Assembly (NCBI RefSeq): GCF_044324785.1
Contig: NZ_CP172127.1
DNA length: 64,000 bases
Source of the DNA: Escherichia coli
GTDB taxonomy: Bacteria; Pseudomonadota; Gammaproteobacteria; Enterobacterales; Enterobacteriaceae
Direction: 5' to 3' (one strand)
Under the pieces are notes generated by a model that searched no databases, was not told the DNA's origin, and saw only the letters and a list, made by a program, of their open reading frames with translations. Each line of letters opens with the position of its first letter. Position 1 is the first letter of the stretch. Shown here piece after piece: positions 10,344-34,632 of this stretch. The position numbers were made by a program, and so were the translations under genes.

Positions 10344-10862
10344 ATGTCCATCCGTTTTGCCCGCAAAGCCGACTGTGCTGCCATTGCGGAAATTTATAAC
10401 CACGCTGTGTTGTATACGGCGGCTATCTGGAATGACCAAACGGTGGATGCAGATAACCGCATTGCCTGGTTCGAAGCGCGGACTTTAGCAGGTTATCCAG
10501 TGCTGGTGAGCGAGGAAAACGGCGTAGTGACGGGATATGCCTCGTTTGGCGACTGGCGTAGTTTCGATGGTTTTCGCCATACCGTGGAACATTCGGTTTA
10601 TGTCCATCCCGATCATCAGGGCAAAGGTCTGGGGCGTAAATTGTTAAGCCGATTGATTGATGAAGCGCGGGATTGCGGGAAGCATGTCATGGTCGCGGGG
10701 ATCGAATCACAAAATCAGGCTTCGCTGCATCTGCACCAGTCGCTGGGATTTGTCGTCACCGCACAAATGCCGCAGGTGGGCACTAAATTTGGGCGCTGGC
10801 TGGATCTGACATTTATGCAGTTGCAACTCGACGAGCGCACTGAACCGGACGCGATTGGATGA
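10344..10862 (+). CDS. mnaT: GNAT-family L-amino acid N-acyltransferase
   Basis: ATG at 10344 (MSIRFARKADCAAIAEIYNH…), 172 aa, GNAT motifs. The ORF-track start at 10110 is an upstream extension. Confidence 0.85.
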   Translation: MSIRFARKADCAAIAEIYNHAVLYTAAIWNDQTVDADNRIAWFEARTLAGYPVLVSEENGVVTGYASFGDWRSFDGFRHTVEHSVYVHPDHQGKGLGRKLLSRLIDEARDCGKHVMVAGIESQNQASLHLHQSLGFVVTAQMPQVGTKFGRWLDLTFMQLQLDERTEPDAIG

Positions 10863-11308
10863 ATCAGTCGCTTACCCTTGCTTTTTTGATTGCCGCCGGA
10901 ATTGGTCTGGTGGTGCAAAACACGCTGATGGTGCGCATCACCCAGACCTCCTCTACCATTCTCATCGCCATGCTGCTGAACTCACTGGTGGGGATTGTGC
11001 TCTTTGTATCTATTTTATGGTTTAAACAAGGCATGGCGGGGTTTGGCGAACTGGTGTCCAGCGTGCGCTGGTGGACACTTATACCTGGCTTGCTGGGATC
11101 GTTTTTTGTCTTCGCCAGTATCAGCGGATATCAGAATGTGGGGGCGGCTACGACTATTGCGGTACTGGTCGCCAGTCAGTTGATTGGCGGTCTGGTGCTG
11201 GATATCTTTCGCAGTCATGGCGTACCACTACGGGCGTTGATCGGCCCAATTTGTGGCGCAATTTTACTTGTGGTTGGTGCCTGGCTGGTGGCCAGGCGCA
11301 CATTTTAA
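10859..11308 (+). CDS. ydcZ: Inner-membrane protein, DUF606 family
   Basis: 149-aa hydrophobic ORF; its start overlaps the mnaT stop (ATGA). Confidence 0.8.
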   Translation: MNQSLTLAFLIAAGIGLVVQNTLMVRITQTSSTILIAMLLNSLVGIVLFVSILWFKQGMAGFGELVSSVRWWTLIPGLLGSFFVFASISGYQNVGAATTIAVLVASQLIGGLVLDIFRSHGVPLRALIGPICGAILLVVGAWLVARRTF

Positions 11309-11542
11309 TCAGAGGATGGTGCCACCTTTGGTTAACTGTTCGTGGCGCGCTTCCATATCTTCTTTATGCTTGCGACCGTGATGAGCAATAGCGGTGCGCA
11401 AACGCTGCTGCTGGGTGTAGCGATCTTCCCGACTTAACTCCGCGTCATCGCTCAGGGCGATTAATAATTCGTTCATATGGGCAATGACGCTCTCTTCAAT
11501 CGCGGCATCCACGCGCGCGATGACTTCATCCAGATGCGACAT
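11309..11542 (-). CDS. ydcY: Small uncharacterised protein
   Basis: 77-aa ORF convergent with ydcZ, the two stop codons abutting; synteny. Confidence 0.7.
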   Translation of the reverse strand: MSHLDEVIARVDAAIEESVIAHMNELLIALSDDAELSREDRYTQQQRLRTAIAHHGRKHKEDMEARHEQLTKGGTIL

Positions 11543-11627
11543 ACTTTCTCCTTAGCCACTTGTGAAATTTATCGATTCATCCAAATGATATAAGTCTGCG
11601 TGGTGCCGTCAAGCCAGTGCGTAAGAT

Positions 11628-11801
11628 TTAAAACAGAGAAAACAACAGCGCCACCGGGAAACTCATCGGCCATGTAGCCCCCACCAGAAAGGCACTTAAG
11701 AAACGGATGCGTTTCTTATCGTGAGAAAGAAACCAGGTGATAAGAAATGCGATTGCTGCCATAACCGCATAAAAAACAAGCATGTGTTGATAGAGAGACA
11801 T
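11628..11801 (-). CDS. ortT: Small membrane toxin-like protein OrtT (YdcX), 57 aa
   Basis: Internal Met of the 73-aa track ORF gives MSLYQHMLVFYAVMAAIAFLITWFL…, which I recognise as OrtT. Confidence 0.75.
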   Translation of the reverse strand: MSLYQHMLVFYAVMAAIAFLITWFLSHDKKRIRFLSAFLVGATWPMSFPVALLFSLF

Positions 11802-11995
11802 GTACGGGCGTCCAGCCAGATGAATAAAACGCGCGCAAATATGCGTCATTTTTTGACGTGCATCAAGTTTTTTAACCGGTTTGAGAAGAAAACATCAAAC
11901 AGCAACTTGCCCTTATCCATCTTCAGAATGAGTATTATTGCGGATTTTCTTAACCCGTACTATACACATAGGGGCAATGATAAAAGGTGGCAAAA

Positions 11996-12091
11996 ATGAA
12001 TGTTTCCAGTAGAACTGTAGTACTGATAAATGTCTTTGCTGCTGTTGGTTTGTTTACTCTTATCTCTATGAGATTTGGCTGGTTTATTTGA
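11996..12091 (+). CDS. yncL: Small membrane protein YncL, 31 aa
   Basis: Hand translation: MNVSSRTVVLINVFAAVGLFTLISMRFGWFI*. Below the ORF-track length cutoff; matches the known small protein YncL. Confidence 0.7.
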   Translation: MNVSSRTVVLINVFAAVGLFTLISMRFGWFI

Positions 12092-12492
12092 TGTAGTGAT
12101 TTTGCACGCAGCACGTACTGTCAGAGAAATCAACTCTCTGACAGTACACAAGATCTTCTCATACTCTCCAGGTTTACAACATTATCCTTAATATTTACTT
12201 CTTTTTGCTGGCATCTACATTGAAATGAGTAGAAAACATCCCCCTACTGTCGTCTATACAAACAGCTTACTGATTCAAAGGGAATCTTGTTTTCACATTT
12301 TTCTATCATCAATACTTTAGACGCGCGGGAGTCTATAAATGCTTTATACTTTCAAGGAATAACGTAAATATAAAAAGATGGCGTAAAGTATATGCATGGC
12401 AGGATGATTGCAACCTCCTTGATGACGCTGTCCCATTGAAATTGCAAACCCCGCACTGGTTATCTTACTCATTTATCATGTAAAACAGACAA

Positions 12493-13302
12493 TTATAGGT
12501 CTCTGAATATCTCAGAAAGATTGAATTTTTTATAGTCCCTCTCTTGAATATTTCCATTTGATATCAATCGATTCATCTCTTCAACAAAATAATTTATATC
12601 ATCACATTTGTTATTATCCGGAAGATCTGAGTAATTATAATTCCACCACTTTATTCTCAACAATTCATCAATAATATTTGAATCAAATCTAAATCTGATT
12701 ATTTTTGCAGGAACTCCTGCAACTATGGCATATGGGGGCACATCTTTGGTAACAACGGAATTGGCAGCAATAACAGCACCATCACCTATTGCGATACCAC
12801 CTTTCAATACAACATCATTTCCTATCCAGACATCATTTCCTATAATCGGATTTTCAGGTTTGGTAATGAATGGTTTCAATGCCCAGCTACGTTCAAACTC
12901 ACTCATAGCAAACTTATCAAATTCACCGTTATAAGTCATCATGTGAGTAGTAAAACGATTCAAAGGATGATTTCCACCCATTATTTTTACATTTGATGCA
13001 ATACTACAAAATCGACCTATATGTATATTCCCTGTAAAATGACAGGTCGGAAATGAAAAAGCGCCGACACTGGAGAAATTTTTTACAGGCATTGTTGAAT
13101 ATTCTTCAGCAATAACATTATCTTCAATTGTTATCTTGTCACCTTTTGAGAAAAGAAATAAATTCCTTTCTTTATACGACTTCTTCCCCTTATGATTTAA
13201 AAAGATTTTATTATCCATACAAAACTCAAAGTGTTTTTTCGTCCACCTGAAGGTAAGGGTTTTATTTTTATCTTCCGTGAATTTATACAATTGAACTTTC
13301 AT
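12493..13302 (-). CDS. Hexapeptide-repeat (left-handed beta-helix) acetyltransferase of the xenobiotic acetyltransferase family, Vat/CatB-like
   Basis: 269-aa ORF in an AT-rich island. C-terminal block IGNDVWIGNDVVLKGGIAIGDGAVIAANSVVTKDVPPYAIVAGVPAKIIRFRFD…LLRIKWWNY closely resembles the Vat(D)/CatB signature as I remember it. True start may be an internal Met. Confidence 0.75.
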   Translation of the reverse strand: MKVQLYKFTEDKNKTLTFRWTKKHFEFCMDNKIFLNHKGKKSYKERNLFLFSKGDKITIEDNVIAEEYSTMPVKNFSSVGAFSFPTCHFTGNIHIGRFCSIASNVKIMGGNHPLNRFTTHMMTYNGEFDKFAMSEFERSWALKPFITKPENPIIGNDVWIGNDVVLKGGIAIGDGAVIAANSVVTKDVPPYAIVAGVPAKIIRFRFDSNIIDELLRIKWWNYNYSDLPDNNKCDDINYFVEEMNRLISNGNIQERDYKKFNLSEIFRDL

Positions 13303-13477
13303 TGTTAATACTTCTACTTATAAATTATTAGGTTAATAACGATACTCTAAAGCCTTATGCGAATCAACTATGACAGGATGAAAAATCACCAACATACATT
13401 TAGATCATAATAACTGCCTAATTTTTCCGCTAGTTATTAATGTAATCATTCTGATACTTAATCACCATTACACTCAG

Positions 13478-13516
13478 AACCTAAAACGATAGTGGCCGCC
13501 CTATAACAGCCACTAA
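13478..13516 (-). terminator. Putative patD terminator hairpin
   Basis: Inverted repeat tagtggc / gccacta just downstream of the patD stop, with a T-run following on the minus strand. Confidence 0.4.
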
Positions 13517-13524
13517 CATTTAAC

Positions 13525-14949
13525 TTAATGTTTAACCATGACGTGGCGGACGACGGTGTAATCCTCCAGCCCATAAAGTGACATATCCTTGCCGTAACCA
13601 GAAAGTTTCTGCCCACCGTGCGGCATTTCACTTACCAGCATGAAATGGGTATTGACCCAGGTACAACCATATTGCAGCCGCGCGCTGACGCGATGCGCCC
13701 TGCCCACATCTTTCGTCCATACCGAGGATGCAAGTCCGTACTGGCTGTCATTTGCCCAGTTCACCACCTGTTCTTCGTTGTCGAAATGCGTAACACTCAC
13801 TACCGGACCAAATACCTCTTTTTGCACGATGGCATCGTCCTGTAATGCGCCAGCCAGTAGCGTCGGCGCATAGTAATAGCCATTACCCTTGCGCTTTTCA
13901 CCGCCAGTGATCACTTTGATGTGCCCTGTCGCTTTCGCCTCTTCTACCGCTTTGCTGACGCGTTCGAGATGCGCCAGCGAGCTTAAAGGTCCAAGCTCCG
14001 TAGACTCGTCATCCGGTGCACCAGATTTTAACGTTGCCACTGCAGCACCGAGTTTTTCCACCAGCGTATCGTAAATACCTTTTTGCGCGTAGATCCGACA
14101 AGCCGCAGTACAATCCTGTCCGGCATTGTAATAGCCAAAAGTACGTACACCTTCGGCCACCGCTTCAATATCCGCATCATCAAAAACTATCACTGGCGCT
14201 TTGCCTCCAAGTTCCATATGAGTACGCTTTATGGACGGCGCGGTATGGCTGATGATGTGCTCGCCAGTGGCGATAGAGCCCGTCAGTGACACCATCCGCA
14301 CTTTGGGATGTCCGGTCAGCGGATCGCCCACCGTTTTGCCTCTGCCAAACAGTACGTTAATCACGCCTGCCGGGAAGATATCTTTCGCCAGCTCTGCCAA
14401 CTTCAACGCTGTCAGCGGGGTAATTTCTGATGGTTTGAGCACTACGCAGTTCCCTGCCGCCAGCGCCGGAGCCAGTTTCCACGCAGCCATCATCAGCGGA
14501 TAATTCCACGGTGCGATAGAAGCCACGACCCCCAACGGATCGCGACGGATCATCGAAGTATGACCTTCAAGATATTCACCTGCCGCCAGACCATGCAGGC
14601 AGCGAGCTGCTCCGGCGAAAAAGCGAAAGACATCGACAATCGCCGGAATTTCATCATTGAACGCACTATGCAGCGGTTTACCACAGTTACGGGACTCCAG
14701 TTCGGCAAAAACCTGACCATTTTCTTCGATAACATCAGCCAGTTTCAGCAGGCATTCCGCACGCGCTTTCGGCGTGGTTTGCCCCCATTCGGCAAATGCT
14801 GCATCTGCCGCGCGCACAGCAGCATCCACCTGTTCTGCGGATGCCTCGGAAATCTCCAGTAAAACGTCCCCCGTTGCCGGATTATAGACAGGCTGTTTTT
14901 CCCCTTCGCCGCTAACCAGTTCTCCGTTTATCAGTAACTTATGTTGCAT
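13525..14949 (-). CDS. patD: Gamma-aminobutyraldehyde dehydrogenase (aldehyde dehydrogenase family)
   Basis: 474-aa [21 protein letters not shown]…; ALDH catalytic motifs; synteny with ydcSTUV. Confidence 0.9.
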
Positions 14950-14970
14950 AGCATATTCCTGTATCAGTGG

Positions 14971-15765
14971 TTATTGACCATTGTCGCCTTCGCGGGTTAG
15001 CCACCAGGCTCCCAGGATCGGCAAGGTTGTTACCAACATAACCAGCAGTGCCACCACGTTGGTTACCGGTACATCACGCGGTCGCCCAAGCTGATTGAGC
15101 AACCACAACGGTAACGTTCGTTCATGACCTGCCGTAAAGGTCGTCACGATGATTTCATCGAACGACAAGGCAAACGCCAGCATTCCTCCTGCCAGTAGCG
15201 CCGAACTGAGATTCGGCAACACTACGTAGCGGAAGGTTTGCCAGCCATTGGCCCCAAGATCCATTGACGCCTCAACCAGACTCCAGGAGGTGCGGCGAAA
15301 ACGGGCGATGACATTGTTAAACACCACCACTACGCAAAAAGTCGCATGACCGACCACGATGGTGAAAAATCCCGGCTCCAGATCGATGGTTTTAAAGGCG
15401 GTTAATAGCGCCAGACCAGTGACAATGCCCGGCAGCGCAATGGGCAGCAGCAGTAACAGCGAAATGGCGTTTTTGCCGAAAAAGTCTCGTCGCCACAGCG
15501 CGGCAGCGGCCAGCGTCCCTAACACCAGCGCAATTAATGTCGCCAGCGCCGCCACTTTAAGTGACAGTGTCACGGCATCAAGAATATCACTACGCTGTGC
15601 TGCCACGCTAAACCAGCGCAGCGTCAGGCCTTGCGGTGGAAAACTAAACGCCGCATCTTCAGTGTTAAACGCATAGGCGGCGATAATCAGGATGGGAAAA
15701 TGTAGGAAAACTACGCCGCCCCAGGCCGCCAGTTTGAGGAAAAACGGTGCGCGTTCAGAGTGCAT
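14971..15765 (-). CDS. ydcV: ABC transporter permease
   Basis: 264-aa multi-TM ORF; last gene of the ydcSTUV operon. Confidence 0.9.
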
Positions 15766-16696
15766 CGAACGCTCCCAGACGTTTCACGAACGCCAGGTAC
15801 AGTGCGATGAGAACAATCGGCACCAGGGTGAATGCCGCCGCCATCGGCATATTGCCAATCGCCCCCTGCTGGGAATAAACCATATTGCCGATAAAATATC
15901 CTGGCGGGCCAACCAGCTGCGGGACGATAAAATCGCCCAGTGTGAGTGAGAAGGTAAAGATAGAGCCAGCGGCAATACCCGGGATCGCCAGCGGCAGCAC
16001 CACATAGCGAAAGGTTTGCCGTGGACGTGCGCCGAGATCAGCTGACGCCTGCAACAATGACGGCGGCAAACGCTCAAGCGCCGCCTGCACGGGCAGGATC
16101 ATGAACGGCAGCCAGATATAGAGAAACACCAGAAAGCGCCCCAGCCCGGAAGTTGACAGCGTATTGCCGCCCACCGCTGGTAATGTAAGGAACGCAGTCA
16201 GCAGTGGTTCCAGCCCCAGATGTTGTAAAAACCACTGAGCCACGCCATCTTTTGCCAGCAATAACGTCCAGGCATAGGCTTTAACAATGTAGCTCGCCCA
16301 CATCGGCAACATTACCGCGATATAAAAAAACGCTTTCATTTTTCCGCTGGTATAGCGCGCCATATACCACGCCATTGGAAAAGCCAGAATGGCGCTGGCG
16401 ATAGTGACTGCCACAGCCATAGTCAGCGTGCGGAGAATGATGTCGTAATTCGCCGGATTAAACAGCGCACGGATATTCGCCAACGTCAGTTCCGGCGTTA
16501 CCGACATGGTGAAATCGTCAAAGGTATAAAAGCCCTGCCATAACAGCGTTAGCAGCGAGCCGAAATAGACAATGCCAAACCACATTAGCGGGCCAAGCAG
16601 CAGTAAAAACAGCCCCAGCCCCGGATTATGCCAGAAGAAACCGGACACCTTACCCAGACCTGGACGTGAAGGTGATTGCAATACATTCATCGCCAT
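15755..16696 (-). CDS. ydcU: ABC transporter permease
   Basis: 313-aa multi-TM ORF; overlaps ydcV by 11 bp. Confidence 0.9.
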
Positions 16697-17710
16697 TCAC
16701 CTCTCCTCAACCAGCGGTACCATCACATCACGCGACCAGGAAACCATCACCTGTTGTCCGGGCGTGAGCGCGGCAGGCAGTTCTTCGCCTGTCATATTGG
16801 CCTGACTCACAAGCAGTTTTTCACCGCCGTTCAATTTCAGTTCAAAACGAGTTGCCGCGCCCTGATATTGCACCGCCTGGATCGTGCCATTGGCCTGCAG
16901 TTCACCAGGGGTGTTGAGGCGGATATGTTCCGGTCGCAGGGCGAAGCTTCCCGTCATGCCACAAAGTTTCTCTGCCATCAGTCCATCAAAAACATTCGAT
17001 GTCCCAACGAATCCCGCAACAAACGGCGTGCGCGGGCGCATATAGAGATCGCGCGGGGAATCGACCTGCTCAATGCGACCATTGTTGAATACCGCCACAC
17101 GATCGGACATCGATAACGCTTCGCCCTGATCGTGGGTAACGAAGATAAAAGTGATACCGAGAGACTGTTGCAGCTTTTTCAGTTCCAGCTGCATCTGCTC
17201 ACGCAATTTGAGATCCAGTGCGCCGAGCGGTTCATCCAACAGCAATACGCGCGGTTCATTCACCAATGCTCTGGCGATAGCAACCCGCTGGCGCTGACCA
17301 CCAGAAAGTTGTGACGGTTTACGTTGCTGTATAAACCCCAACGCCACTTTCTCCAGCGCCTCTTGCGCCATTGCGTGCCGCTGCTTTTTATTCACGCCTT
17401 TGACCATCAGCCCATAGGCGACATTGTCAAGAATCGACATATGCGGGAATAGCGCGTAGTCCTGAAAGACAGTATTCACGTCCCGCTCCCACGGTGGCAG
17501 ATTGCTGGCGGGTTTACCAAAGATAGAGATAGCCCCGCCGGAAAGCTGTTCGAAGCCAGCAATCAGGCGCAGGCAGGTGGTTTTGCCGGAGCCGGACGGC
17601 CCCAGCATAGAGAAGAACTCACCATCTTTTATCGCAATACTGACGCCATCTACTGCGCGCACGTCACCGTACAACCGCGAGACGTTGTCAAACTCCACTG
17701 CGTACGTCAT
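16697..17710 (-). CDS. ydcT: ABC transporter ATP-binding protein (PotA-like)
   Basis: 337-aa ORF with Walker A GPSGSGKTT, signature LSGGQRQR and Walker B LLLDEP. Confidence 0.9.
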   Translation of the reverse strand: MTYAVEFDNVSRLYGDVRAVDGVSIAIKDGEFFSMLGPSGSGKTTCLRLIAGFEQLSGGAISIFGKPASNLPPWERDVNTVFQDYALFPHMSILDNVAYGLMVKGVNKKQRHAMAQEALEKVALGFIQQRKPSQLSGGQRQRVAIARALVNEPRVLLLDEPLGALDLKLREQMQLELKKLQQSLGITFIFVTHDQGEALSMSDRVAVFNNGRIEQVDSPRDLYMRPRTPFVAGFVGTSNVFDGLMAEKLCGMTGSFALRPEHIRLNTPGELQANGTIQAVQYQGAATRFELKLNGGEKLLVSQANMTGEELPAALTPGQQVMVSWSRDVMVPLVEER

Positions 17711-29904: not shown

Positions 29905-30129
29905 TTACACCTCTTTGACACTCTCCTGCTGCAGGATTTTGAGCATCTCATCTTTTAACTGTAGCTTTTGTTTTTTCATGCGGACCACTTCCGCATTGTA
30001 CCCTCGACCGTCGGAACCTTCCTTTCTGGCAATTTCATGATCAAGTTTATTGTGTTTATCGAACAAGGACATAAAGCGAGGATTTTCGTTTTTCAGACGG
30101 GATATTAAATCTCGGTATTCTGGAAACAT
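29905..30129 (-). CDS. ydcH: DUF465-family small protein
   Basis: About 74 aa (MFPEYRDLISRLKNENPRF…); synteny. Confidence 0.7.
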   Translation of the reverse strand: MFPEYRDLISRLKNENPRFMSLFDKHNKLDHEIARKEGSDGRGYNAEVVRMKKQKLQLKDEMLKILQQESVKEV

Positions 30130-30268
30130 ACGCACTCCCTGTTAGTGGCTGACAAGGTGTATATGAAATACACACTATCAGATTACTCATTTAACTTAGG
30201 GAAAAATGCGAGCGGGATCGTGTTTAACCAGACGGCACCTCCCGAAGAAGGTGCCGAAGAAAAAACGA

Positions 30269-31924
30269 CTAACTCATCACGCGGTCGTCAACATACTGAC
30301 GTTTATCCGGCGCTGGCGGGAAATACTGATAGAGCCATGTTTCACTGATAGCGTCGCCCTGACAACGCAGATACATCCGCATATCGACCGGATCAGTGGA
30401 GTCCGAAGTCGGATACCAGTCAAACTGAATACGATAACCATCAATGGGTTCAATATAGAGAATTTCGATTTGCTTCGCTTCCCCACTGGAAAGCGTAATC
30501 ACCGGCTCAATGCCTTTTGGTGCGGCAGCTTTCAGATCACCACCAACGAAATCGACGGCAAAACGACGCGCCCATTTTTCGGGATAGTGTTCACCAGGCG
30601 CCCAACCTTCCGGGAAACCGCCCATGCCGGTACGCGTTGCCATAACGCGCGCTAATGGGCAATGAACAGGCGGTTGCGCACTCCAGTACAGACGATACTG
30701 GAATGCAAACTCATCACCCGCTTTTACAGCTTTTTCTGGCTGCCAGAAGCAGACAATGTTATCCAGCGTTTCGCCCGTTGTTGGGATTTCCATCAGGCCG
30801 ATGGTGCCCTTACCCCACTTGTTACGCGGCTCCACCCACAGACTTGGGCGTTTGTTATACCAGCCCATAATGTCCTGATAATGGGAGAAATCACGATCCA
30901 GTTGCAATAAACCAAACCCTTTCGGGTTGTTGTCGGTGTAAGCATTGAACTGCAATTTTTGCGGATTATTCAGCGGACGGCAAATCCACTCGCCGTTGCC
31001 CCGCCACATGGACAGACGATCTGAGTCATGGATTTGCGGATGAATGGTGTCGCACATCCGACGTTCATTAGTACCGCAGCTGAACATGCTGGTCATCGGC
31101 GCAATGCCCAGCTGTTTAATGTCTTTGCGCGCATACAGGTGATTTTCCACATCCATAATCACCTGACTTTTCTCACAATGGATAGTGAACTTATAGGCAC
31201 CAGTAATGCTGGCGCTATCGAGCAACGCATAAACGGTAAAGGTGGTTGCCCCCGGTTTTACCGTATCAAACCAGAAGGCGGTAAAGTCGGGGAACTCTTC
31301 TTTACTGTCGGTGTAAGTGTCGATCGCCAGGCCGCGAGCCGACAAACCGTATTGATATGTATCATCAACCGCGCGGAAATAACTCGCGCCGAGGAATGAT
31401 ACGACATCACGGCGCGCCAGTTCGGGGGCTTTAAACACGCGAAAACCGGCAAAACCGAGATCGCTTTGCCCTTCTAATTGTTTGGTATCAACACCCGCAT
31501 CGTTGTATTTGAACAACTCCGGGCGAAAGTGAATTTCACGCGCCAGATGTGTTGCGGGATCAACAGAAAACATACGAACGCGGCGACGGAATCCCATTCC
31601 CATATGGAAGAACTGAGCGTCCAGTTGACGGTTCTCAACGTTATGCCAGAGCGATTTTTCGGCGTCGTATTGAATACTGTTATAAGCCTGCGGCGTCATT
31701 GTCGCCAGAGTGTCAGGTAACGGACGCGGCGCACCACGCCACGCGGTTTGCGCTAAGTCGTGCGCCATTGACTGTAGAATGGAGAAGTCAAAACGCTGGG
31801 TTTGCCCGTCGGCAATATCAGAATCTGCCGCGAATGCCGCCTGAGAAAAAAGAGAAGCAATGCCGCTGGTACCGCACACGGCGGCCATAGCCATTGAACC
31901 TTTAATAAATCGTCTACGATCCAT
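30269..31924 (-). CDS. opgD: Periplasmic glucans biosynthesis protein D, Tat-secreted
   Basis: 551-aa ORF with twin-arginine signal [23 protein letters not shown]…. Confidence 0.9.
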
Positions 31925-32148
31925 ACCTGAAAGTGAGTCCTTCTGGTGTTGTGAGTGGTCCCGCGCTGGTCGTTTTCAGCGGCAAGAAAGTGCTTATTTA
32001 TGACCGCTCACTCTAGACAATATTTATTAATAATCCAATTGTTGAACTCAGAGAATATGCATAAATCGGCAATTTTTTTATGTCGATGGGATGAGCCTGA
32101 TTCGTTTGTAAAATCAGGCAAATTTTTGCAAAGGCGGATGATCAGAAT

Positions 32149-33492
32149 TTAAAGCAAACCACAGCGACGTTTACTGCGTTCTTCCGCTTCCTGATAAAGC
32201 TGGAACTCATCCAAAACCGGGCAGCCCAACGCCTGCTCAAATGCTTCGCGACTGGCATTACCGTGACTGCGTGCCTGCGTTTCATTACCCAGATTTGACT
32301 GGAAGATCCCCGCCGCGCTAACAGGCAAGAAATCTTCATAGGTAATGGGTTGCGCCACTACCCAACCACGTTCAATTAAGGGCTGTGGATCGTCTCCGGG
32401 ATGAATCGCCTGACGATGCGCCTCACCTGAAGGCGTCAGACGGTACCGGAACCATGCCAACCCTTGCTGACGCATTAAAAACTCACTGTCAGGAAAAGTG
32501 CGGAAGGTTTCCTGTAAATGCATTTGGTGAGTGAGATTATCCTGCCCGGTTCCAGCGTTCCGCAGTAGATCATCATACAGTTGTCGCCCTTTCGGCGTTA
32601 ATGCCACGCCACGCTGCTCTATTTCACCAAAGCGCGCGGTATGCGTGCCCTGTTTCTGCCCTACAAACAACACCGTCTCTTCCAGTGCTTTAAAGCTAGT
32701 CTGGCGTAGTAAAATCGGTACCTCGCGGCGCGGCGGCCCTTCGATCAGAATTTTTGGTTCAATTCCGCATTCAGGCATCATCGACTGCACCCGGTCAATA
32801 TCCAGCGTGCGTGGCGTCAGGTGGTTGATATGGCATCCAGGAAAACAGACCACATCAGCAATCAGACGATGTTCGTTATGCAAGGCGCGATAGGTTACTT
32901 CATCCACCGTTGCTGACTGGTGCCAGCGAAACGTTTCCAGAGCTTCCTGCACAAACTCCTGTGCCTGTGTTTCGTTAAAACCGCCCTGCTGCTCATATTC
33001 CTCTAACAGTTGTCGACAACATGGGGTGAAGATATCGCGCTGACGCAGAATCTCCGCCGCTTTCTGGCGCAAAATTTCGTTCTCGATAAGCTCAAGGCGG
33101 AGTAATGAAGTAAAAACGCGGAAGGGATTACGCGCCAGAGAAGCATCATCAATGGGCCGAAATGCTGTCGAATGTACCGGCACCCCCGCCTGCGAGAGAT
33201 CGTAATAGCTCACCGGGTACATCCCCATAATGGCAAACATCCGCCGAAGAGTAGCAAGCTCTTGTGCAGTCCCAACACGAATCGCCCCATGACGTTCAAC
33301 ATTCAGTCGCGCCAGCTCGTCTGCATTTACCATTTTTTCGTGCAGTTGAGGATTGTTTTCCAGCACAGCCAGATTCACATCAGCTACCAGTTCCAGCAGC
33401 GTACCGTACTGCGGAACTTCTTGCTGGTACATGGCTGACATTGCCTGCGAAAACTGTTCCCGAATCTCATCCGCCGTGATGCTGTTCGCCAT
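32149..33492 (-). CDS. ydcJ: DUF1338-family protein
   Basis: 447-aa ORF; synteny with opgD and ydcI. Confidence 0.85.
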   Translation of the reverse strand: MANSITADEIREQFSQAMSAMYQQEVPQYGTLLELVADVNLAVLENNPQLHEKMVNADELARLNVERHGAIRVGTAQELATLRRMFAIMGMYPVSYYDLSQAGVPVHSTAFRPIDDASLARNPFRVFTSLLRLELIENEILRQKAAEILRQRDIFTPCCRQLLEEYEQQGGFNETQAQEFVQEALETFRWHQSATVDEVTYRALHNEHRLIADVVCFPGCHINHLTPRTLDIDRVQSMMPECGIEPKILIEGPPRREVPILLRQTSFKALEETVLFVGQKQGTHTARFGEIEQRGVALTPKGRQLYDDLLRNAGTGQDNLTHQMHLQETFRTFPDSEFLMRQQGLAWFRYRLTPSGEAHRQAIHPGDDPQPLIERGWVVAQPITYEDFLPVSAAGIFQSNLGNETQARSHGNASREAFEQALGCPVLDEFQLYQEAEERSKRRCGLL

Positions 33493-33708
33493 AGTGTCTG
33501 CCTCCAGTGGTCAGTAATCTGGAGTGTAGGTAACCGCATTCACTCTGGCGGGAAGAATTTACAAACTGTGATCTCGCCGCGAAAACATCAATATTATCCA
33601 TTTTGCTGTAACATAATTGCTTTAATTGTTAATAATATTTTGCAATCAAGTTATCATAATCAAACAACTTCACTTGTCAGCGACACCGCTTCGTTTTTAA
33701 CATCGCTT

Positions 33709-34632
33709 ATGGAAAAAAATAGTCTGTTTAGTCAGCGCATCCGTTTGCGCCACCTTCATACATTCGTAGCTGTCGCACAACAAGGAACTTTGGGGCGCGC
33801 GGCTGAAACCCTTAATTTGAGTCAACCTGCGCTCTCTAAGACATTGAATGAACTGGAGCAGCTGACGGGCGCTCGCTTGTTTGAGCGTGGTCGTCAGGGG
33901 GCGCAACTTACCTTACCCGGCGAACAATTTTTAACGCATGCAGTCAGAGTTCTTGACGCCATCAACACTGCCGGACAGTCGCTTCATCGTAAAGAAGGTC
34001 TTAATAATGATGTCGTCAGGGTTGGTGCACTACCTACTGCGGCACTGGGGATATTACCTTCGGTTATAGGTCAGTTTCATCAGCAACAAAAAGAGACGAC
34101 CTTGCAAGTTGCGACAATGAGTAACCCTATGATTCTTGCGGGTTTAAAAACCGGGGAAATCGATATCGGCATTGGTCGGATGTCAGATCCTGAACTGATG
34201 ACCGGACTTAATTACGAACTGCTGTTTCTTGAATCGCTGAAGCTGGTTGTCCGCCCTAATCACCCGCTACTTCAGGAGAACGTAACGCTAAGCCGGGTGC
34301 TGGAATGGCCGGTCGTTGTATCACCAGAAGGCACTGCGCCACGCCAGCATTCAGATGCATTAGTGCAGAGCCAGGGCTGTAAAATTCCTTCGGGTTGTAT
34401 CGAAACGCTGTCTGCTTCGCTATCTCGTCAACTTACGGTTGAATACGACTACGTGTGGTTTGTCCCTTCTGGCGCGGTAAAAGACGACCTGCGTCATGCC
34501 ACGCTGGTGGCCCTGCCTGTTCCGGGTCATGGTGCAGGCGAACCGATTGGAATACTGACCCGCGTAGATGCGACGTTCTCTTCTGGTTGCCAGTTGATGA
34601 TTAACGCTATTCGAAAATCAATGCCGTTCTGA
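33709..34632 (+). CDS. ydcI: LysR-family transcriptional regulator
   Basis: Internal start MEKNSLFSQRIRLRHLHTFVAVAQQG… gives 307 aa with a LysR HTH. The ORF-track start at 33568 is an extension. Confidence 0.85.
   Translation: MEKNSLFSQRIRLRHLHTFVAVAQQGTLGRAAETLNLSQPALSKTLNELEQLTGARLFERGRQGAQLTLPGEQFLTHAVRVLDAINTAGQSLHRKEGLNNDVVRVGALPTAALGILPSVIGQFHQQQKETTLQVATMSNPMILAGLKTGEIDIGIGRMSDPELMTGLNYELLFLESLKLVVRPNHPLLQENVTLSRVLEWPVVVSPEGTAPRQHSDALVQSQGCKIPSGCIETLSASLSRQLTVEYDYVWFVPSGAVKDDLRHATLVALPVPGHGAGEPIGILTRVDATFSSGCQLMINAIRKSMPF

Follow-up and report, generated by a model that had tools for sequence, protein, structure and literature searches.

A predicted XAT-class acetyltransferase related to Campylobacter Orf11, encoded by an AT-rich single-gene insert between yncL and patD in a subset of Escherichia coli

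Introduction

Orf11 of Campylobacter jejuni O-acetylates C-9 of the terminal sialic acid on lipo-oligosaccharide (LOS) (Houliston et al. 2006, J Biol Chem 281:11480, work that PMC2174954, PMC8319020 and PMC3513307 cite); the same three papers describe orf11 as the sialic acid acetyltransferase gene of class A/B LOS loci, and GD3-FCHASE has served as acceptor in assays of the enzyme (PMC3513307). Among acetyltransferases that modify antibiotics, the residues of VatD that contact streptogramin have been assigned (bioRxiv 2025.01.31.635826), and CatB hydrogen-bonds chloramphenicol through Pro8, Gly11, Tyr30, Ser32 and His79 (PMC8096840). The canonical XAT architecture includes a helical C-terminal region (PMC7885111).

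Here we analyse a gene in a 64,000-nucleotide stretch of E. coli DNA (contig NZ_CP172127.1; hereafter the window), for which an initial annotation, made from the sequence alone, had suggested a cryptic antibiotic-modifying or acquired resistance-like role. RefSeq already annotates the kind of gene, naming the product of the orthologue “CatB-related O-acetyltransferase”; a literature search by RefSeq accession, product name and phylogroup terms found no paper on the gene. One E. coli paper uses the same product name for a different gene, which lies in the ST131 capsule operon.

Results

The insert and its gene

The stop codons of yncL (12091) and patD (13525) are separated by a gap of 1,433 bp (12092..13524), occupied by an insert of ~1.33 kb with 33% GC; the low-GC gene island of the initial annotation, between yncL and patD, is therefore confirmed with its exact interval. 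GC content is 0.334 for the insert and 0.325 for its ORF, compared with 0.488 for the 64-kb window and 0.533 for patD. The insert carries a minus-strand ORF of 269 aa that starts with the ATG at 13302 (Table 1). None of 1,000 shuffled versions of the insert gave an open frame as long as the 274 codons seen here (mean 76, maximum 163), and at this composition a run of 270 open codons has an expected probability of ~1e-10; the ORF is not a product of chance, and the insert is a real, intact, single-gene, AT-rich segment. At the empty, K-12-like site the spacing between yncL and patD is just 96 bp, and K-12 has no gene at this position, as the initial annotation supposed.

Table 1. Features of the yncL-patD interval (positions in the window)
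Feature	Position	Strand	Remarks
CDS, predicted XAT-type left-handed beta-helix acetyltransferase	12493..13302	-	ORF, Pfam, PDB/NCBIfam matches, AF2, Foldseek, dN/dS, RefSeq
Upstream block, ~80 bp, accompanies gene	13303..13383	-	conserved with Citrobacter
Candidate sigma-70 promoter 1	TTGATT 13367..13362, 17 nt, TATCGT 13344..13339	-	conserved in Citrobacter
Candidate sigma-70 promoter 2	TTTAGA 13351..13346, 16 nt, AATAAT 13329..13324	-	-10 not conserved
Terminator-like hairpin just 3' of patD stop, within insert	13490..13515	-	11-bp stem, loop of 4, then TCGTTTTAGG
Non-coding DNA 3' of gene, 295 bp, part of insert	12198..12492	-	
Left copy of imperfect 20-nt direct repeat (family D1)	12178..12197	+	AACATTATCCTTAATATTTA
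Right copy of direct repeat	13515..13534	+	AACATTTAACTTAATGTTTA; overlaps patD stop and last three codons
Perfect 13-bp hairpin 3' of yncL (inverted repeat I10), context only	12115..12147	.	

DNA homology to the Citrobacter locus is limited to 13383 to 12506. The two candidate sites in the upstream block may serve as promoters, and a promoter consensus scan found sites no more numerous than in shuffles. The 3' non-coding DNA showed neither homology to the Citrobacter locus nor an RNA-family match; an Rfam scan of 11700..13700 with E up to 1 returned one chance-level match (snR76, 18.9 bits vs a gathering score of 55). The hairpin just 3' of patD, also recorded as inverted repeat I18, is the sole terminator-like site in 11900..13700: the initial annotation was right that this hairpin exists, but had it bound the insert, whereas at 13515..13490 it falls inside. 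In empty-site genomes the only hairpin between yncL and patD is the one that follows yncL.

A scan of the insert for mobile elements and integrons found no terminal inverted repeats, transposase, integrase or attC-like structure, and the sole mobility-type feature is the imperfect direct repeat. The final 11 nt of its left copy (CTTAATATTTA) agree with the end of patD at 10 of 11 positions, and the left repeat region is identical in all three filled haplotypes examined. The empty site holds one hybrid copy of the repeat (ATTATCCTTAATGTTTA), which fits deletion between the repeats or insertion with later mutation; neither simple insertion nor simple deletion fits, however, because the 13 nt to the left of the repeat (12168..12180) are too divergent, differing from the empty allele at 7 of 13 positions.

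Fold and catalytic residues

The assignment to the hexapeptide-repeat acetyltransferases of the XAT class, already made in the initial annotation, held up. The protein matches Pfam Hexapep (E 1.8e-9), as expected for a left-handed beta-helix, and in the AF2 monomer model (pLDDT 90.8) the helix begins near residue 56, preceded by one strand and one helix. The model further contains the loop typical of XAT enzymes, a non-beta insertion at residues ~109-152 with a helix at 126-136, and the helical C-terminal region (helices 208-217, 236-248 and 262-268). All of the best 40 Foldseek matches are Vat (including VatA and VatD), CatB, PaXAT or ApmA structures.

The segment GGNH112PLNRFTT aligns with GANH82RMDG of VatD, and the same alignment pairs H82 with H112, W121 with W159 and S68 with S100; W219/W220 align with the WWNW of Vat and CatB. 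H112, P113, D157-V158-W159 and W219-W220 are invariant in 41 homologues. Sequence and model together indicate that the protein is an XAT-class left-handed beta-helix acetyltransferase in which the predicted catalytic histidine (H112) and acetyl-site tryptophan (W159) are conserved.

Relationship to Vat, CatB, ApmA and Orf11

As noted at the outset, the protein does resemble streptogramin A and type B chloramphenicol acetyltransferases: VatD matches residues 61-230 with E 2.8e-29 and 34% identity, and CatB matches have E values of ~1e-23 to 1e-27. Scores against the curated profiles nevertheless fall well short of their cut-offs, with 124.4 bits vs 300 for Vat (NF000311), 107 bits vs 350 for type B Cat (NF000490) and 83 bits vs 550 for ApmA (NF000084). 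The drug contacts are mostly replaced as well. Among the VatD streptogramin contacts tested, Y54 to F84 is the only conservative change, and Y37, P90, N92, L93, P103, L108 and P109 correspond to T70, H120, M122, T123, S134, F145 and I146. Of the CatB residues that hydrogen-bond chloramphenicol, His79 alone has an identical partner (H112): Tyr30 is replaced by T70, Ser32 lies in a deletion, and the N-terminal segment with Pro8 and Gly11 is missing from the E. coli protein. Comparison with ApmA gave Foldseek TM-scores of 0.36-0.45, and the N-terminal regions do not superpose. Given these scores and replacements, we reject an identity as Vat, CatB or ApmA.

A closer relative was found in C. jejuni. 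Protein P0127 is encoded by the sole hexapeptide gene in a locus of cgtA, cgtB, cst, neuB, neuC, neuA, X, GT2 and waaF, and we take it to be Orf11 on the basis of this gene position rather than a published sequence. BLASTP aligns it with the E. coli protein over ~210 aa, up to the C terminus, with 141 bits and 38-39% identity. Members of the clade score 141-177 bits and Vat and CatB3 102 bits each, whereas Vat and CatB3 score 149-159 bits against each other. What sets the clade apart is a longer loop, a C-terminal tail of ~40 residues, ~35-50 extra residues at the N terminus, and the motifs EEY, MGAFS and HPxxRFTT; neither Vat nor CatB3 has these extensions and motifs. By scores and alignment, the Orf11-like proteins are thus nearer to the E. 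coli protein than Vat and CatB are, and it appears to belong to a separate clade of which Orf11 is the one studied member. Relative to Vat the E. coli protein extends ~33 residues at the N terminus (query 61 = VatD 28) and ~22 at the C terminus; the N-terminal extension that the initial annotation described is real, but had been put at ~85 residues, and it is a clade signature held in common with Orf11.

Gene neighbourhoods differ within the clade. Linkage to genes for sialic acid synthesis or sialyltransferases is seen only in Campylobacter, where the C. lari relative lies within a cst, neuB, neuC, neuA operon, and in Providencia, where the relative lies at the end of a prophage, in divergent orientation to a GT52 gene; it is not seen in E. 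coli, where patD and yncL are the neighbours. The Listeria relative lies directly 5' of gtfA-gtfB, and those of Kluyvera and Dickeya occupy phage cargo positions. In the closest relatives, those of Citrobacter (78%), Cedecea (71%), Apirhabdus (53%) and Rahnella (47%), the gene is solitary and has no glycan-synthesis neighbour. No relative adjoins resistance genes among the loci examined.

Distribution, mobility and selection

The insert occupies the same site in ~1,150 of 5,426 complete E. coli genomes (~21%), in keeping with the accessory status first proposed; carriers include O26:H11 and O111:H8 EHEC and many untyped strains, and the gene is absent from K-12-like strains, O157:H7, O145 and ATCC 25922. 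The best homologues are not housekeeping acyltransferases, and the gene is not universal core sequence of known function. Among sampled full-length copies, 37 of 39 are annotated as one intact CDS, and IS1 disrupts some copies (H62 and H67). The dN/dS ratio is 0.13-0.24 in comparisons between E. coli alleles and 0.07 in comparison with Citrobacter, so the gene is under purifying selection.

A scan of one genome per species placed close relatives in two Citrobacter genomes, a ‘Raoultella’ MAG and Enterobacter sp. Ag1 alone; it found none in other Escherichia species, each represented by one genome, in a set whose E. coli representative itself lacks the gene. This distribution leans, weakly, towards acquisition within E. 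coli. A tblastn search of plasmids gave one close match, to a record of 4.9 Mb, clearly a chromosome, and the remaining matches are below 60% identity; the corresponding phage search gave no match with 80% query coverage or 60% identity. The protein matches no defence-system family in PADLOC, and its best match in PHROGs is phrog_16087, of unknown function.

Discussion

We propose that the insert encodes a soluble, acetyl-CoA-dependent XAT acetyltransferase of the Orf11-like clade that acts on a sugar or glycoconjugate and belongs to a one-gene cassette; taken as a whole, we give this proposal an even chance of being correct. The enzyme is probably a homotrimer whose subunits would each combine the left-handed beta-helix with the inserted loop and the helical C-terminal region; by analogy with Vat, CatB and PaXAT, His112 on the loop would act as general base toward the acceptor hydroxyl in a pocket between subunits, and acetyl-CoA would lie along the helix near Trp159. 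As acceptor we consider most likely the hydroxyl of a sugar or glycoconjugate (a free sugar, or a glycan of the surface or derived from a host) rather than streptogramin A or chloramphenicol, a preference that follows from the activity of Orf11, the one studied member of the clade, on sialic acid. Two considerations qualify this reading: the gene is solitary in E. coli and its closest relatives, so that no acceptor pathway is indicated, and a serotype-specific O-antigen is disfavoured as the acceptor because the gene is present whatever the serotype (O26, O111, many untyped). The gene would move as an AT-rich cassette together with ~80 bp of its own upstream DNA, and, in a subset of E. coli, would have become fixed between patD and yncL. 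A more specific scheme seems to us decidedly doubtful. In it, a mobile cassette that Providencia, Kluyvera and Dickeya carry as cargo of prophages or satellites, and that is fixed in the chromosome of one E. coli lineage, O-acetylates sialic acid or another surface-glycan precursor from the cytoplasm and thereby alters a phage receptor or host-facing antigen; such a glycan modification, independent of serotype, would be new to E. coli and would concern the ~21% of genomes with the gene, O26:H11 and O111:H8 EHEC among them.

The protein could instead be a cryptic chromosomal O-acetyltransferase of antibiotics or other xenobiotics (streptogramin A, chloramphenicol or another hydroxyl-bearing drug) that is silent or masked by intrinsic resistance. 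The nearest solved structures and best named HMMs are indeed those of Vat, CatB and ApmA, the catalytic histidine and the residues of the acetyl site are retained, resistance genes too are usually solitary and have an upstream region of their own, and ApmA offers the precedent of an XAT enzyme with an extra N-terminal part and an unexpected antibiotic substrate (PMC7885111). However, the profile scores lie 2.4- to 6.6-fold under the curated cut-offs; this sub-threshold pattern is no sign of an antibiotic substrate, because the sialate O-acetyltransferase Orf11 gives the same one; the contact residues for streptogramin and chloramphenicol are not conserved; and we found no true plasmid or phage copy, no integron or IS features and no relative beside resistance genes. 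We therefore consider the antibiotic-related role put forward in the initial annotation unlikely, also in view of the higher score to Orf11 (141 bits) than to Vat and CatB (102 bits).

Acetylation of an amine (an amino sugar, an aminoglycoside or another amine) in the manner of ApmA is improbable in our judgement: ApmA, at 274 aa, is about as long and is likewise extended at the N terminus, but its HMM gives 83 bits against a cut-off of 550, its TM-scores are just 0.36-0.45 with the N-terminal region unaligned, the modelled N-terminal part of the E. coli protein (one strand, one helix) is unlike that of ApmA, and the nearest characterised relative is an O-acetyltransferase. We attach very little probability to the gene being a functionless, hitch-hiking remnant of an old horizontal acquisition, kept by linkage alone and probably silenced. 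H-NS silences AT-rich DNA, and the DNA here is AT-rich (33% GC); IS1 has disrupted some copies (H62, H67), and most E. coli lack the gene with no known consequence. Yet the dN/dS values (0.13-0.24 among E. coli alleles, 0.07 vs Citrobacter) speak against a remnant, as do the retention of full length, including both extensions, across genera and the intactness of the majority of copies.

About one in five E. coli genomes, including major non-O157 EHEC serotypes, thus carries an intact, selectively maintained gene for a predicted acetyltransferase. Because its database name and best named matches suggest antibiotic resistance, the gene could be misread as a resistance determinant in genome screens; by comparison of sequences such a label appears unsafe, as a glycan-modifying enzyme gives the same pattern and the residues that bind the drugs have not been retained. 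Modification of a surface or host glycan could change the antigenicity or phage sensitivity of a whole lineage; with a drug as acceptor, the gene would constitute a silent resistance reservoir.

Compared with known systems, Vat enzymes (VatD, 1KHR; VatA, 4HUS), the top Foldseek matches, likewise show the XAT architecture and an aligned catalytic histidine, but lack the N-terminal extension and long C-terminal tail of the E. coli protein, and their genes are found on plasmids and phages, whereas the E. coli gene is on no true plasmid or phage record. Type B chloramphenicol acetyltransferases and PaXAT (CatB3, CatB7 2XAT, 6MFK) have the fold class in common, with 43% identity over a core of ~150 residues; catB genes, however, are integron cassettes on plasmids, unlike the solitary chromosomal E. 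coli gene. ApmA (7JM0; 274 aa) is of XAT type and likewise has an extra N-terminal region, but this domain consists of four strands and two helices that are missing from the E. coli model, and ApmA is an aminocyclitol N-acetyltransferase for which the histidine is not needed (PMC7885111). Orf11 (P0127) ends an operon for sialic acid synthesis and transfer, whereas its solitary E. coli counterpart is flanked by patD and yncL; over their first 45-65 residues the two proteins are barely alignable, and as these are left uncovered and identity is only 38-39%, specificity may well differ from that of Orf11. The two are nonetheless of similar build (276 aa for Orf11 vs 269 aa), show an identical pattern of sub-threshold NCBIfam Vat/CatB matches, and have in common the N-terminal extension with N-I-[FY], EEY, MG(A/S)FS, the longer loop, H-P-x-x-R-(F/I)-(T/S)-T after the catalytic histidine, WWxYxFxD and the C-terminal tail of ~40 residues.

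Results

An AT-rich insert carries a single acetyltransferase ORF

Alignment of the window to a K-12-like genome, in which just 96 bp separate yncL and patD, revealed 1,326 bp of extra DNA within the 1,433-bp gap between the stop codons of the two genes, and this gap contains a 269-aa ORF. The insert has a GC content of 0.334 and the ORF one of 0.325 (0.278 at third positions), compared with 0.488 for the whole window and 0.533 for patD. The open frame spans 274 codons, whereas the longest frame in 1,000 shuffled inserts averaged 76 codons and never exceeded 163; an ORF of this length is therefore not a product of chance in such AT-rich DNA.

Features of the yncL–patD interval (window coordinates)
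Feature	Position	Strand	Remark
yncL	11996..12091	+	stop bounds the gap on the left
Hairpin 3' of yncL	12115-12147		perfect, 13 bp
Direct repeat, left copy	12178-12197		AACATTATCCTTAATATTTA; imperfect
Insert	12198..13523		extra DNA
Acetyltransferase	12493..13302	-	ORF call
Terminator-like hairpin for patD	13515..13490		inside the insert
Direct repeat, right copy	13515-13534		AACATTTAACTTAATGTTTA; imperfect; overlaps last codons and stop of patD
patD	13525..14949	-	stop bounds the gap on the right

The two copies of the direct repeat are identical at 16 of 20 positions; the empty allele, which lacks the insert, has a single hybrid copy, and the junctions are identical across three filled haplotypes. 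Filled and empty alleles differ at 7 of the 13 positions left of the repeat (12168-12180), so the insertion or deletion event was not clean. Repeat and feature analysis found no transposase, integrase, terminal inverted repeat or attC-like structure in the insert. The loop of the yncL hairpin and the sequence directly after it vary between filled and empty haplotypes; this is the sole hairpin between the convergent yncL and patD in empty-site genomes, and patD has its own within the insert in filled ones. Elsewhere in the window, the mechanical ORF over mnaT (10110-10862) is 250 aa long and the annotated gene, starting well downstream, 171-172 aa; the additional N-terminal stretch probably goes untranslated.

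Distribution, alleles and upstream block

Among 5,426 complete E. coli genomes, the flanks were matched in 5,415. The insert is present in 1,150-1,158 (21%), in every case at the yncL–patD locus. Carriers include O26:H11 and O111:H8; the site is empty in K-12-like strains, O157:H7, O145 and ATCC 25922. RefSeq names the product “CatB-related O-acetyltransferase”. The two main E. coli alleles are ~98.2% and ~96.0% identical to the insert of the window, and 241 recorded contigs encode exactly the protein of the window. Compared with E. coli strain N3, the window shows 100% identity at 30000-34000 but only 97.1-97.7% around the insert (6380-16718), where N3 has the empty site. Given this difference, and as no complete E. 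coli genome reaches 99% identity to the insert, the chromosome is mosaic here or belongs to a lineage missing from the complete RefSeq genome collection.

No true plasmid or phage record carrying the gene was found; the only “plasmid” with a close copy, NZ_CP141089.1, is a 4.94-Mb E. coli record filed among plasmids and is evidently a chromosome. The close relatives found in a scan of one genome per species were confined to Citrobacter and a small number of other enterobacteria, and none came from other Escherichia species. A 97% identical copy of the E. coli gene lies on JAIJJM010000727.1 (1,576 bp), a contig binned to a Collinsella MAG, and is almost certainly E. coli contamination.

DNA homology with Citrobacter covers the ORF and ~80 bp upstream (13383..12506) and nothing beyond; the gene thus travels with its own upstream block. 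E. coli and Citrobacter have in common a candidate promoter in this block (TTGATT, 17 nt, TATCGT), which is a suggestion only, because a promoter scan found sites no more numerous than in shuffled sequence. At 12812-12843, two exact 14-nt copies of ACATCATTTCCTAT, 18 nt apart, code for repeated IGNDVW hexapeptides; in strain 2012EL-2448 an in-frame duplication of 18 bp at this place extends the protein to 275 aa with an additional WIGNDV turn, probably through replication slippage that added one β-helix coil segment.

Fold and predicted chemistry

Pfam identifies a hexapeptide-repeat protein. Among solved structures, its best sequence matches are VatD (E 2.8e-29, query residues 61-230), VatA (about 1e-27, about 58-230), CatB enzymes (1e-23 to 1e-27, about 62-229) and ApmA (1e-22, 85-230), and the top Foldseek matches of an AlphaFold model (41 homologues; mean pLDDT 90.8) are all Vat, CatB, PaXAT or ApmA. 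All canonical parts of xenobiotic acetyltransferases (XATs; PMC7885111) are found: the β-helix; an inserted loop of ~40 residues, bearing a predicted catalytic H112 that aligns with VatD His82 and is invariant across the family; and a helical C-terminal region with a WW motif. With all these parts present, acetyl transfer from acetyl-CoA with histidine as general base is well supported by analogy. The initial annotation had proposed an XAT-like hexapeptide protein encoded in low-GC DNA, at a position where it placed no gene in K-12; the ORF is confirmed at the coordinates given there, and the fold assignment and accessory status hold.

Relationship to Campylobacter Orf11

In C. lari, the gene for a homologue (39% identity) closes a cst, neuB, neuC, neuA operon. 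The corresponding C. jejuni protein is P0127 (276 aa; 1,560 member sequences), and the gene order around it, cgtA, cgtB, cst, neuB, neuC, neuA, P0127, GT2, waaF, is that of the class A/B LOS locus. According to PMC2174954, PMC8319020 and PMC3513307, the product of orf11 in this locus is the sialic-acid O-acetyltransferase that Houliston et al. 2006 characterised; we identify P0127 as Orf11 by gene position rather than by direct sequence comparison. In BLASTP the E. coli protein scores 141 bits against P0127 (210 residues, reaching the C terminus) and 102 bits against either Vat or CatB3; Vat and CatB3 score 149-159 bits against each other, and P0127 scores 92-94 bits against either.

Discussion

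Most likely, the gene product is an O-acetyltransferase that depends on acetyl-CoA and belongs to the XAT structural class and the Orf11-like clade, and roughly one E. coli genome in five carries the gene as an AT-rich cassette of its own. The gene already has an annotation, under a generic name, in more than 1,000 genomes, and a literature search turned up no publication about it. Its closest relatives offer no functional hint because the gene is solitary among unrelated genes: patD and yncL in E. coli, a GNAT gene and a PNP/MFS/Tsx cluster in Citrobacter, a chemoreceptor gene and colicin locus in Cedecea, and unrelated neighbours in Rahnella and Apirhabdus. Homologue contexts point away from antibiotics, and where neighbours hint at anything, they hint at glycan modification or phage cargo: the homologue is divergent from a GT52 gene at a prophage end in Providencia, directly upstream of gtfA-gtfB in Listeria, just past P2-type tail-fibre genes in Kluyvera, and within a primase and terminase element in Dickeya. 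That prophage end in Providencia rettgeri (around 7000-9400 of the Providencia sequences) also holds defence-type cargo varying by strain, with DarT and a NADAR-type DarG in one strain and a reverse transcriptase and AAA_21 ATPase in another.

The acceptor would be, with nearly an even chance, a hydroxyl of a sugar or glycoconjugate. The initial annotation had suggested an antibiotic-modifying enzyme or an acquired resistance-like gene as possibilities; an antibiotic or other xenobiotic acceptor is suggested by the structural matches, yet no test run supports it, and we regard it as unlikely. No resistance gene lies beside any relative among the contexts examined. The NCBIfam scores for Vat (124 bits, cut-off 300), CatB (107, cut-off 350) and ApmA (83, cut-off 550) are all far under the curated cut-offs, as is the best match, the uncharacterised TIGR03308 (131, cut-off 202); these scores, together with the drug contacts lost relative to Vat and CatB, rule out identity with any of the three. 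Since Orf11 shows the same sub-threshold pattern of Vat, CatB and ApmA matches, this pattern says nothing on an antibiotic substrate. An amine acceptor, as with ApmA, is improbable, and an acceptor class outside all these readings is about as doubtful as a xenobiotic, if not slightly more so. That the gene lacks a present function is the most remote reading: comparing the window allele with the two main E. coli alleles gives dN/dS of 0.24 and 0.15, comparing these two with each other gives 0.13, and the comparison with Citrobacter gives 0.07, values that bespeak a working gene. Of 39 full-length copies sampled across the matching records, 37 are annotated as a single CDS and the other two are split by IS1. 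In some chicken isolates (NZ_CP148483.1, NZ_AP038814.1) the gene is split by IS1A, and each piece has an annotation of its own, either “antibiotic acetyltransferase” or “LbetaH domain-containing protein”.

Comparison with characterised enzymes separates the acetyl site from the drug-binding site. VatD residues were mapped through solved-structure alignment, in a numbering that recovers all the residues discussed in the VatD fragment study (bioRxiv 2025.01.31.635826): the acetyl site (H82, W121, S68) is kept, whereas the streptogramin contacts are replaced (Y37→T70, N92→M122, L93→T123, P90→H120, P103→S134, L108→F145, P109→I146). Of the CatB residues that hydrogen-bond chloramphenicol (Pro8, Gly11, Tyr30, Ser32, His79; PMC8096840), only the histidine has a counterpart. 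A multiple alignment shows a feature set, absent from Vat and CatB, that the E. coli family shares with Orf11 and with many relatives of 250-280 aa from Firmicutes, Vibrio, Shewanella and Treponema: EEY and MGAFS motifs; H-P-x-x-R-F-T-T past the catalytic histidine, with a longer loop; WWxYxFxD followed by a ~40-residue tail; and an N-terminal extension that contains the motif N-I-[FY]. This extension, initially put at ~85 residues, is real but measures ~33 residues relative to Vat in the solved-structure alignment, and it is a signature of the Orf11-like clade.
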